DNA of 64,000 nucleotides, taken from Thermodesulfobacteriota bacterium (GTDB lineage: Bacteria > Desulfobacterota > Desulfobulbia > Desulfobulbales > SURF-16). The notes under the pieces are model-generated. The model was not told where the DNA came from. It ran no database searches and saw only the letters and a program-made list of their open reading frames with translations. Shown here piece after piece: positions 58,501 through 64,000 of this stretch; position 1 is the stretch's first letter, and each line of letters opens with the position of its first letter. The position numbers and the translations under genes are program-made. Location: the NCBI GenBank assembly GCA_039714595.1, contig JBDLJA010000011.1, forward strand, positions 148 through 64,147, written 5' to 3'.

Positions 58501-61500
58501 TGAAATTTATCCGCGACCACAGAGTACGGCCCGATATCAGCACCGACGCCCGGCCCGGCTTCAAGACCATCACCGCTGATCGCCTGACGCGGGTGGAGAT
58601 GCGTTTTAAGGACCAGTTGGTCCGCAGCTACACCTTCAATTATGAGGAAGGCCCATACAAGAAGACCAGGCTTGCCGCCATCTCCCAGCTTGGCACGGGT
58701 GGTGGTGTCTTCCACACCCACCGTTTTGCTTACTTTGATGAGATACGTGACCAGAACGGCGATTACAAGGGCTTTGACCCTGTTGGACCATCTTGGGAGA
58801 CCCACTATGATCGGGTGAGCAAACTCCCCCGTGAACAGGACGCTACGGCGCTCAGCGGCTCCTACGGAACTAATTTGGGCGGCCATTTCTTTCTTGGAAT
58901 AGGCCCCTCAGGTCAAGGTAAGAATATTTCCGGCGGCGTGAAGATCGGCTTTGGCATGGGCGATAGCGAAGGCACCATGGCCATGATTGACCTGAACGGC
59001 GACGGTATTCAGGACAAGGTCTTCAAAAGCGGCGATGGCTTTGCCTACCGTCCCGGAAGCTTAAAACTTGACGGCACGGTAGCCTATGAAGGAGTAAAGA
59101 AACAAATCAATCTTCCCGCCATAGCCAGCGAAGAGTCGGAGTCCATCAACTTCGGCGGTAGCATCAATGTCTTTTTGGTTCGGTTAGGTATTAACGCCAA
59201 TGAGAACTTGACCACGGGCAATACCTACTTCAGTGACGTCAATGGCGATGGTCTGACTGATGTTGTCAGTAACCGCACGGTCTACTTCAATCATTTGGTT
59301 GATGGCGTTCCCTCCTTCAGTCGCAACAGTGCCCTGACCCCGGTGGAGATTTATAAGGGAAAGGGTGTTGTGGAAACAGCCGTCATCAACGACAAACGGA
59401 TGGAAGAGCGGGAAGAGGCGCGGGCCGAGCAATTTCCCCTGATCGACGCCGTGCGCCGCTGGCAGGCGCCCTTTGCCGGCACCGTCACCATTAGCGGCGG
59501 GGTGAAGCTAAAGTACAGCCGCGATATCCTTGCGGGTTTAAAGAGACCATACGAGAAGGCGGATGGCGCCCGGGTAGCGATTCAGCACAACGGCAGCGAG
59601 CTGTGGCGGCAAAGGCTGGAGCTAGCCGCAACCGAGGCCGCCAACCAGGCGGTCAGCCCGCATAATGTGGAAAACATCCGGGTGGAGAAGGGTGACAGGA
59701 TCTATTTCCGCGTCCAGTCGGTGGATGACGGCGCCTACGATGAGGTGCTTTGGGACCCGGAAATTTTTTATACCGGTATATCGGACGATATCAAAGACGC
59801 CAATAACCTTAACCCGTACCGCTACAAGGCCAACTCTGATTTCACCTTTGCCGGCCGGGAAAACAGCGTCAATATGCCTTTAAAGGGTACGGTCCGCCTG
59901 GTGGGTGAATTCAGAAAAAATGATATCACCTCTGATGATGTCACGGTGCTGGTGAAGAAAAGCGGCGAGGTCGTCTACAGCCGGGTCATCCCGGCGGATA
60001 AAGTCGAGACGATTTCTCTAAATGAAGAAATAGCCATCGATGTGGCCTCGACCACGGCTGCCAAAGATAGCGGCCTGACGGCGGAGGAGATGGCTGCTGC
60101 CGATCTTGACCCCAATCATCAGTTTGAGACCTTTGACCGCCTGGAATTTTACGTTCAGGTTGATTCTGCCATCGATCTCGCGAAGATAAGCTGGGCGCCT
60201 GAAATTTATTATACCGAGGCCGAAACTGAGCAGAATGTAGTTGATGAGACGGGCAACTATCTTATCCGTTTTTACCCGTCTTATGACGCAGACCTTTACC
60301 CGATGAACAGGCTTGCGAGTCACCAGGAATCGTGGGTCGCCCCGAAGGGCGGTGATCTGGTAATTTATCCCAGTTTGCCCGAGGATTTCGCGGAAAAAGT
60401 ATCCGCAGCCGAGATTTTCTTCACCGTCAAGAGCAATGGTAGGCTACTTGGCAAGCGGAAGATCACCATTGTCGACGGGGTCATGCCCGTCATGGACGGA
60501 ATGTGGATCTATCTGCCCCAGGTGACAGAGGGGCAGGAACTCTTCTTTGACTTCAGCGCCAGGAAGCAGAAGCTTGTCGATTTGCCTTTCCTGGAAGAGG
60601 GTTCGGCAAGTTACGTTTACGGCGACGAGGAGGCCTGGCTGGCCCCGGCAGGCGGCACGGTTAGCCTGACGCCTCAATTCTTCTTTGACGATGAAGACCG
60701 TGATTTTGCGAAAATTAACACCAAAGTCCTTTGGACGGTAAGCCGGGAGGGTGAAACCCTGGCGGTTCGCGAACTGGTGGTGGAAAAGGGCGTGGTCCTT
60801 GAGCCGGAAAGTCATCAGCTGGAGCTGCAGGTGGCCCAGGACGACGAGCTTGTCAGCAACTATTGGCTGGTCAGCGAGCTTTTGGCCAAAAAGGTTGTTA
60901 GCCGTGATGTTCAGTTTTTAAGGCAGGGAACACCGGCAGTGCTGCAGGCCGCCGGACTCAAACACCCGGAGGATTCTTTTCTGGCGGTATTGCACAGCTC
61001 AGACCGGGCCGATGTGTTCAATGAGGCATACCGCTCTTGGTCATTTGCCGTTTATAACAGCGGCGCAGACAACGAAGAGGCCATGAAGGAGACAGCCTTT
61101 AAACTGTCGCCAGGTGATAAGGAATATTTGCAGAAGGTATCTGAGCGCGAGGAGGATATGGACCTAAATGAAATGGGCTCCTTTCCCTTAGCGCCGGAAC
61201 TGGCCGGGCTTGATCTTGCTTCTGGTGAGATGGTGGCTAAGAATCGTTGGGGCGGACTGGATGAGGATTGCTGGCTTAAGCAGTACAGTATGAGCAGTTC
61301 GCGGCTGGGCATCAACAATATCCGCCTGCCTCGCTCCAGCGATTTCTTCGGCGCCTCTGCTGTCCCCCGGATGAGTATCGGCGAGGGTAAATCCGTCAGC
61401 CTCGGCCTGGTCTTGACCGGCTCCACCGCCACGGGGGAGAGCTATAGCCTCCTCGACTACATGGACATGAACGGCGACCGTTTTCCCGATGTCATCGGCG

Positions 61501-64000: not shown

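Follow-up and report, generated by a model that had tools for sequence, protein, structure and literature searches.

A giant SpvB–propeller–RHS toxin from a Thermodesulfobacteriota bacterium whose gate propeller may carry a built-in β-barrel

In Tc toxins, as described in those parts of the literature considered here, the toxic moiety is cleaved and kept unfolded within an RHS cocoon, and a six-bladed propeller serves as the gate to the channel of TcA. A class of polymorphic toxins named TcdB/TcaC combines a signal peptide, an SpvB domain with an integrin-like propeller, and RHS repeats (Zhang 2012, PMC3482391); the passages of that paper dealing with the class also mention ZU5 at the N terminus and variable toxin domains. 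Here we analyze a giant open reading frame (ORF) in a 64,000-nucleotide stretch, hereafter the window, of a Thermodesulfobacteriota bacterium (assembly GCA_039714595.1, contig JBDLJA010000011.1, here C11, positions 148-64147), whose genome comprises 2.76 Mb in 76 contigs and is 97.6% complete. The ORF lies on the plus strand (55554..>64000), is open at the window end and continues to the end of C11 at 65884; its product has at least 3394 residues. With a signal peptide (judged by eye), SpvB, a propeller and RHS repeats, it has the make-up of the TcdB/TcaC class, and it is almost certainly a member of a family of SpvB–propeller–RHS proteins of the BC type, in which the counterparts of TcB and TcC form one chain. 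Our subject is its propeller, each blade of which is preceded by a long predicted β-hairpin.

A search for D.[ND]GD located six motifs, at residues 1146, 1228, 1971, 2072, 2159 and 2255 (nucleotides 58989, 59235, 61464, 61767, 62028 and 62316), and Pfam likewise found FG-GAP repeats in the protein. A reading made from the DNA letters before this analysis (the sequence-only reading) had proposed that each of six FG-GAP blades follows an amphipathic hairpin rich in Gly, Ser, Thr and Asn; arithmetic from residue to nucleotide shows its six motif coordinates to be exact, and all six of the peptides it quoted are present in the translation. A further match of the regular expression, at residue 1066, was considered as a seventh blade and rejected, as it is not conserved in the family consensus. 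The compositional claim also held: the 40 residues before each motif contain 38-57% Gly, Ser, Thr and Asn, compared with 27.6% for the whole protein, and lie at the 86th-100th percentile among the 40-residue windows of the protein. The claimed alternation of polar and apolar residues, measured as the period-2 hydrophobic moment, fared less uniformly. It was borne out for the segments before motifs 1146, 1228 and 2255, where the observed moment was exceeded by only 1-2% of 500 shuffles, was marginal for segment 2072 (7%), and was no better than in shuffles for segments 1971 and 2159.

Relatives of the protein are numerous. A word-based search recovered 902 among 8000 scored candidates, and when all of 1.84 billion cluster representatives were scanned, 1476 passed E<=0.001, of which 485 also passed E<=1e-30. 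The species-genome collection contained 271 relatives, of which 80 were kept for listing; these are mostly from Actinomycetota, the others coming from Chloroflexota, Bacillota, Nitrospirota, Thermodesulfobacteriota, Geobacteraceae, Polyangiaceae and Beta- and Gammaproteobacteria. The six segments align across several phyla, in alignments of 30 and 53 family members, so that the pattern of one hairpin per blade is conserved as the sequence-only reading would have it. Among 53 sequences, G1109, H1111, G1115, G1128, G1132, G1201, G2142, G2143, G2220 and the Asn-Pro-Gly beginning at N2237 are invariant, and Y1113, K1130, N2132 and E1203 (a Ser in the present protein) are invariant or nearly so. 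Alignment across phyla with invariant residues indicates that the segments are not low-complexity sequence arising by chance. Column statistics for the same 53 sequences revealed a two-faced pattern near each hairpin tip: alternate positions (for example 1112/1114/1116 and 1127/1129/1131/1133) are hydrophobic in 70-100% of sequences and variable in identity, and the positions between them, on the opposite face, hold Gly, His, Lys, Glu and Asn that are invariant or nearly so. In the half of each strand that is closer to the propeller, both faces are polar or charged.

We built two models with AlphaFold2. Model 1 covers residues 1105-2300 of the giant protein and was built from a 30-row alignment (mean predicted local distance difference test score [pLDDT] 74.9, predicted template modeling score [pTM] 0.62); model 2 covers 1012 residues of a homolog from Actinokineospora sp. 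HUAS TT18, a monoderm (L055:9980-13015), and has a mean pLDDT of 84.7 and a pTM of 0.73. Model 2 contains the same six hairpins at higher confidence (pLDDT ~70-92, against 60-87 in model 1), and in both models a long β-hairpin precedes every D.NGD loop and continues as the innermost strand of the blade. All six are encoded on the plus strand. Hairpin 1, assigned by DSSP in both models (residues 1106-1118/1125-1139; 58869..58970), leads into blade 1 and the motif at 58989; its strands are E2-14/E21-35 in model 1 and E2-16/E26-39 in model 2, and it contains the invariant G, H, G, K and G. The other five are placed by both models together with conservation or, for hairpin 4, the alignment. Hairpin 2 (1192-1206/1209-1227; 59127..59234) leads into blade 2 and the motif at 59235, hairpin 3 (1939-1952/1954-1967; 61368..61454) into blade 3 and the motif at 61464, and hairpin 4 (2007-2015...2058-2071; 61572..61766) into blade 4 and the motif at 61767. 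Hairpin 5 (2118-2135/2138-2158; 61860..62027), which is preceded by a strand at residues 2103-2114, leads into blade 5 and the motif at 62028, and hairpin 6 (2210-2229/2232-2254; 62181..62315) into blade 6 and the motif at 62316. In model 1 numbering the strands of hairpins 2 to 6 are E88-102/E105-123, E835-848/E850-863, (E903-911...)E954-967, E1014-1031/E1034-1054 and E1106-1125/E1128-1150. The strands before the D.NGD loops are 13-23 residues long in this model, and the second strand of each hairpin passes directly into the loop. We considered whether they could be ordinary blade strands and rejected this, since canonical blades have no such additional 35-50 residues. Blade 6 has just three confident strands in both models.

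The arrangement of the hairpins relative to one another was deduced by aligning the models, all against all, to 48,161 PDB representatives. The propeller of model 1 matched TcdB2 residues 393-697 (Z 13.3, 267 aligned) and YenB (Z 9.0), and that of model 2 matched TcdB2 at Z 15.1, with YenB superimposing on the model propellers at Z 9.0-9.7; the six-bladed propeller foreseen from the sequence is thus TcB-like in both models. The same models also matched membrane barrels. For model 1 the best was the β-domain of BrkA (Z 13.6, 204 aligned, root-mean-square deviation 3.7), with Hbp (Z 13.3), EstA (12.7), KdgM (12.7), NalP (12.3), a COG4313 channel (12.3), FapF (11.9), AIDA-I (11.7), LpxR (11.1) and a designed 12-stranded membrane barrel (8.5) also among the matches; for model 2 they were the COG4313 channel (12.7), FapF (12.2), Hbp (11.6), and EstA and NalP (11.0 each). 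The barrel alignments of model 1 extend over residues ~21-1144, that is, over all six hairpins, and the aligned lengths of ~200-240 match the summed hairpin residues (~207). The structure prediction that the sequence-only reading had called for therefore returned a propeller bearing six hairpins that match barrels in both models, and its proposal of 12 strands from a single chain has in silico counterparts in models that score like 12-stranded membrane barrels. These comparisons suggest that the six hairpins probably form a real barrel of ~12 strands.

Alternatively, the barrel could be an artefact of AlphaFold2, the Gly-rich segments being flexible loops or extensions of the blade sheets. Because hairpins that are Gly-rich and amphipathic look like the strands of outer-membrane proteins, AlphaFold2 could have closed them into a barrel, and the pLDDT of the model 1 hairpins, the 30-row alignments, the use of one method on nearly the same alignment and an unclear Foldseek result are all compatible with such an error. 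We nevertheless consider this explanation improbable, given the higher pLDDT of the model 2 hairpins, Z scores of 12-13.6 over ~200-240 residues to many unrelated 12-stranded barrels in both models, and the invariant Gly, His, Lys and Asn-Pro-Gly that lie within the strands across phyla, which point to a fixed structure.

If the hairpins do close into a barrel, the two faces of their strands can be assigned tentatively. Because a barrel of 12 strands is too wide for a hydrophobic core, one expects the variable hydrophobic face on the outside and the invariant Gly, His, Lys, Glu and Asn on the side of the lumen. The modeled barrel would then consist of a polar stalk near the propeller and, at its far end, an aromatic-rich belt ~8 residues tall. 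The outward hydrophobic belt that the sequence-only reading had anticipated is thus present as a variable hydrophobic face beside the tips, but is thin. In integrin-type FG-GAP propellers, the 4-1 loops and the 1-2 (D.NGD) loops are on opposite faces, and the hairpins are elaborated 4-1 loops. If the first strand of the domain closes the last blade, as in integrins, both ends of the chain are on the side of the D.NGD loops, and the barrel is directed away from the shell; the three-stranded blade 6 and the departure of a large insertion (described below) from the barrel face fit such a closure. On balance, we lean toward a barrel that points outward, away from the cocoon.

These data are consistent with the following mechanism. 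The protein would be a polymorphic toxin of the BC type that is exported by Sec and acts on its own; after SpvB and a TcB-like propeller that serves as the gate, it would have an RHS cocoon and, at its C terminus, a variable toxin. The loop into the innermost strand of each blade would be drawn out as a long hairpin, and the six hairpins would together form one ~12-stranded barrel coaxial with the central channel of the propeller. Cocoon and gate would, by homology, work as they do in Tc toxins: after autoproteolysis inside the cocoon, the unfolded toxin would exit through the propeller gate and the barrel, whose hydrophobic, aromatic-rich distal end would engage the target membrane. The barrel would in this way serve, within one chain, the role that a separate TcA channel has in Tc toxins. 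12-stranded barrels, such as those of autotransporters, have a pore size suited to an unfolded chain, and the simplest use of a barrel with such a belt would be as a nozzle that engages a membrane. We infer the outward orientation, the passage of cargo and the insertion into a membrane from the models and alignments. As a whole, a BC-type toxin with a built-in barrel that delivers its cargo is our best explanation, held tentatively and at somewhat less than an even chance; that the barrel is used as a membrane-spanning delivery pore is less likely again, a possibility we regard with some doubt.

Several observations weigh against this explanation. In the present sequence, alternation beats shuffles in just three of the six segments. 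The hydrophobic belt comprises 3-5 alternate positions per strand, spanning ~8 residues beside the tips, and is thinner than that of a typical membrane barrel. Hairpin 1 has a conserved Lys in its tip of 6-10 residues, and the tip of hairpin 4 (61596-61730) is a low-confidence polar excursion of variable length, at least ~38 residues and rich in Gly, Ser, Pro and Ala; polar tips of this kind are costly to carry across a bilayer. A Foldseek search of model 1 against the PDB returned poor multi-domain matches only (TM <= 0.09). Of the 30 alignment rows, 28 are common to the two models, which were made by the same method, so that their agreement speaks to robustness and not to independent confirmation. 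From these models we infer barrel closure, the assignment of inside and outside, and barrel direction alike. Without an integrin-like closure the chain enters the propeller on the barrel face, which fits a funnel directed inward. The exit of a protein of >350 kDa from a diderm producer is unexplained by the proposed mechanism. Finally, the class to which the protein belongs was already described in 2012 (PMC3482391), and is thus not itself new.

Some of the same observations would be expected if the barrel were real but never entered a membrane, forming instead a static collar or plug at the gate of the cocoon, perhaps an inner funnel, with entry into the target by another path, for example, in the manner of colicins, by receptor-mediated uptake that uses the insertion domains. 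The loops leading to strand 1 of the blades are the ones drawn out as hairpins, on the face where the chain of a simple propeller enters, and the belt is thin with a long polar loop at one tip. The lumen of the Tc cocoon is described as largely hydrophobic (PMC11435725), so a hydrophobic rim could face cargo. This arrangement would, however, require a small shell (~325 residues of SpvB region and ~950 of RHS) to hold a barrel of ~210 residues in addition to the toxin, and the ~700-residue insertion, which departs from that face too, has to be outside the cocoon. The variable lengths of the tip loops (that of hairpin 4 has 26 additional residues in one homolog) and a Cys pair found at the tip of hairpin 6 in many actinobacterial homologs suit an exposed position, and residue identity at the hydrophobic positions is variable, as it is at positions that face lipid. 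We consider a static collar unlikely, although it is the strongest of the alternatives. The tip loop of hairpin 4, or the Cys-bearing tip of hairpin 6, could be a lid, a plug or an exposed recognition loop.

The sequence between blades 2 and 3 is interrupted by an insertion of ~680-720 residues (residues ~1260-1935; 59331..61358, plus strand), which is mostly β in both models. All of the 119 homologs have it; no other part of the region is as well conserved, and it carries the motifs D.[VL]RRW[VQ]AP[YF] and YFR[VT]QS[VI].DG. Neither Pfam nor NCBIfam gave a match to it, and the ESM Atlas returned unnamed clusters only. Within it, at residues ~1432-1563, is a jelly roll like those of C1q and TNF (Z 7-8.4 to C1q/TNF domains in both models), for which Foldseek gave a match to 5kca with probability 1.00. 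The conservation of the insertion is oddly high for a mere receptor binder. We speculate that its β-sandwich domains may bind the target or may cover the hydrophobic belt before use; the belt would require shielding until then, and the highly conserved insertion is a candidate for that part. A complete, self-contained injection device in a single chain, in which an RHS cocoon, a propeller gate and a membrane-inserting 12-stranded barrel act with the insertion as receptor binder or removable sheath, is a picture we put forward as possible but rather unlikely in all its parts.

The proposed mechanism dispenses with TcA, and the sequence-only reading had asked whether homologs co-occur with it. 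In the host genome, searches for TcA_TcB_BD (PF18276) and VRP1 (PF03538) gave no match. The controls built into this search gave none either; the PF18276 search matched in 15 of 50 genomes that bear a family member, and so is able to detect TcA. In the remaining 35, whose completeness is not given, there was no match. In the genomes with a TcA, the gene was never within the 10-kb flanks of the family gene: where one contig carries both, 208 kb to 5 Mb separate them, and in the other checked genomes they are on different contigs, adjacency being judged here from whole-genome matches in the 50 genomes, with no TcA search of the 80 loci themselves. A Tc toxin has a cognate TcA that is normally adjacent, and the giant protein has none. 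INDEPENDENCE from TcA is therefore supported by the genome data.

One genome offers a direct comparison. In an Amycolatopsis assembly (G024, contig C11 of that assembly, 82000-101999), a canonical TcA lies ~4 kb from a convergent ORF of 2316 residues encoding a fused BC-type protein with TcdB_midC (E 3e-25). In this protein SpvB ends at residue 319 and TcdB_midN starts at 644, so that the propeller spans ~325 residues, whereas the corresponding span in the giant protein is ~1270 residues; a span of ~325 residues leaves no room for the hairpins or the insertion. This is the single case of a hairpin-less, TcA-adjacent BC gene that was compared. The same Amycolatopsis genome also carries a hairpin-bearing family member, and large actinomycete genomes can thus hold both kinds.

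The sequence-only reading had also seen no tcA, vgrG or PAAR gene in the window. For PAAR this extends to the whole genome, in which PAAR_motif found no match (the control matched in 3 genomes), but the absence of vgrG is confined to the window: another contig (C27) has three VgrG-like (Phage_GPD) genes, at 6104-7027, 8253-9152 and 28462-29382. Because of these three genes, the genome probably has a type VI secretion system (T6SS) or a related contractile system. Effectors of the Rhs type that are carried by a T6SS have a PAAR domain or an N terminus that binds VgrG; the giant protein has no PAAR, and its N terminus is a signal peptide. A signal peptide does not suit loading onto a T6SS. It is conceivable that the toxin depends on an injector supplied in trans, either a TcA encoded elsewhere or the T6SS of this genome, as the VgrG-like genes and the 15 genomes with TcA might suggest. 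We think this highly improbable, since the host genome has no match to TcA_TcB_BD, VRP1 or PAAR, 35 of the 50 genomes have none to TcA, the signal peptide is ill-suited to T6SS loading, and in the one case examined TcA is accompanied by a compact BC gene of its own.

The structural matches raise another possibility, that the barrel anchors the protein in the outer membrane of its producer and, in the manner of an autotransporter, displays or exports the cocoon at the surface. The best matches are indeed autotransporter β-domains, a signal peptide is present, and the genes immediately upstream, in the same orientation (48949-54712 of the window), encode an outer-membrane factor (OEP), a membrane-fusion protein and, with E 1e-163, an RND pump of the AcrB family, and indicate that the host is a diderm. 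Those efflux genes look unrelated to the toxin, and no such neighbor recurs in the 80 homolog loci. Actinomycetota, Chloroflexota and Bacillota generally have no outer membrane, yet most of the 80 kept relatives are from Actinomycetota and some from the other two phyla. Moreover, autotransporter β-domains are contiguous and confined to diderms, and the strands of the present barrel come in six pieces interleaved with blades and a 700-residue insertion, not as a contiguous C-terminal domain. An anchor in the producer's outer membrane is accordingly a very remote prospect.

The remainder of the giant protein conforms to its class. A probable Sec signal peptide occupies residues 1-29 (55554..55640, plus strand, as are all features of the protein), with a putative cleavage site between PQASLA and DT; it was recognized by eye. 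By the same criterion, homolog N termini show the same charged-then-hydrophobic pattern, with a signal peptide in 15 of the 17 listed, monoderms included; the called starts are short in both of the others (P0120 and P0047). An N-terminal module follows (residues 30-619; 55641..57410), which is present in only ~30 of 119 homologs; the N-terminal 599 residues have no match in Pfam or NCBIfam. Next is a ZU5-like region that ends in a conserved HFTD (57411..57788; Pfam ZU5 E 0.037, 14.7 bits, below the cut-off). In actinobacterial homologs the mature protein starts, after the signal peptide, with VPEHPEG, just behind the ZU5-like/HFTD site. The HFTD site and this mature start fit a module that is cleaved off, which suggests that in long forms the N-terminal module (residues 30-745) is removed autoproteolytically.

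The SpvB/TcB N-terminal shell domain (residues 777-972; 57882..58469) was identified with PF03534 (E 5.3e-27). In a phmmer search of the PDB with the protein itself, matches (to YenB, TcdB1, TcdB2 and SpvB) were confined to this part, and the family profile was required to reach the shell. TcdB_toxin_midN (PF12256, E 2.1e-19; residues 2242-2361; 62277..62636) comprises the last blade and the entry to the RHS shell, and Pfam listed no TcdB_toxin_midC at E <= 0.01. The shell of RHS/YD repeats (62637..64000) extends past the window and is identified by Pfam RHS repeats and by a profile match to TcdB2-TccC3 (E 1.5e-71). After the last RHS repeats a low-complexity stretch rich in Lys, Gln and Gly (C11 65400-65884) runs up to the end of the contig. 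The ORF ends at the last base of C11 with its C-terminal toxin domain unassembled, and the RHS core, toxin and immunity gene lie beyond that point; homologs have an RHS core and toxins. When the tails of homologs were used as tblastn queries, the only match was a short RHS-core-like stretch of another contig (C37; E ~1.5e-4). We rejected this stretch as the end of the giant gene, since a stop precedes it and an orphan cassette is more likely. Positions 1-2100 of that contig contain a 77-residue frame open at the contig start, small ORFs resembling membrane proteins, and the RHS-core-like stretch with a short tail; Pfam gave nothing useful there, and the region possibly represents orphan Rhs toxin/immunity cassettes from downstream of the giant gene.

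The nearest homolog, from a Thermodesulfobacteriota metagenome-assembled genome, is 59% identical. Residues ~1000-1650 and ~1850-2300 are covered in 119 of 119 homologs and the rest of ~750-3200 in 100-118 of them; in their sources, homologs are named 'SpvB/TcaC N-terminal domain-containing' or 'RHS repeat-associated'. Their C termini match many different toxin families in Pfam, among them nucleases, deaminases and peptidases, and toxins of these kinds must reach the cytoplasm of the target. Clustering of the flanking ORFs of the 80 loci revealed no conserved partner gene, no neighbor being present in more than 6 loci; in 4 of the 80 a small conserved ORF lies directly downstream, SUKH-like by eye only.

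SpvB–propeller–RHS polymorphic toxins are common, and the toxins that they carry, nucleases among them, act within cells. We found no published account of how they reach the target cytoplasm without TcA or T6SS, and no report of a β-barrel or hairpins on a propeller of the SpvB/TcB type, in a literature search whose coverage did not extend to supplements and subscription journals. A barrel in the gate offers a concrete and testable answer to delivery without either system. If the proposal is right, it would constitute a third delivery route for Rhs/YD toxins, beside the TcA syringe and the T6SS, and one that is widespread in soil Actinomycetota and occurs in other phyla. The architecture would also be unusual, a membrane-type barrel built from the loops of a β-propeller in one chain.

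The giant protein can be compared with several known systems. In the 2012 account of the TcdB/TcaC class (PMC3482391), the signal-peptide, SpvB and propeller module is treated as an export determinant, and the passages on the class describe neither hairpins, nor a barrel, nor the insertion. Effectors of the Rhs type that travel by T6SS (RhsA, Tse5 and Tse15) share an RHS cocoon enclosing a C-terminal toxin, as PDB profile matches show, but have PAAR or VgrG-binding N termini and a plug domain, and have no SpvB and no propeller. Mosquito SGS1 (8FJP, PMC10792529), to the RHS part of which the family profile has a weak match, is likewise a giant protein whose RHS cocoon is formed by one chain, with a Tc-like propeller and, in addition, domains of the lectin type; in the portions of that report considered, the six listed domains include no β-barrel, and the membrane-active part is proposed to be helices stored in the shell.

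The 12-stranded barrels of the outer membrane (BrkA, Hbp, NalP, EstA, KdgM/NanC and FapF) have a like fold and size (Z 10-13.6, ~155-240 aligned), at 3-14% identity; unlike them, the barrel of the giant protein would be non-contiguous, and its family is common in monoderms. In β-pore-forming toxins such as α-hemolysin, aerolysin and anthrax protective antigen, amphipathic hairpins rich in Gly, Ser and Thr likewise join in one barrel, and the barrel of protective antigen conducts unfolded enzyme. Those toxins contribute one hairpin per subunit of an oligomer, whereas here six would come from one chain, pre-arranged on a propeller, with neither a prepore state nor an oligomer indicated.

The closest counterparts are the TcB-TcC proteins TcdB2-TccC3 and YenB-YenC2, which share the SpvB shell domain, the six-bladed FG-GAP gate propeller, TcdB_midN and the RHS shell. 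When the family profile is aligned to the propeller of TcdB2-TccC3, only the D.NGD loops align, at TcdB2 positions 397, 448, 497 and 609, and this spacing indicates canonical blades of ~50 residues. The motifs of the giant protein that are not separated by the insertion are 82-101 residues apart, compared with ~44-61 residues for canonical blades. Thus, relative to TcB-TcC, the giant protein lacks a TcA partner and a TcdB_toxin_midC match and has a shorter shell, and it combines in a single chain a signal peptide, a ~700-residue insertion and six long hairpins, one in front of each blade of the gate.

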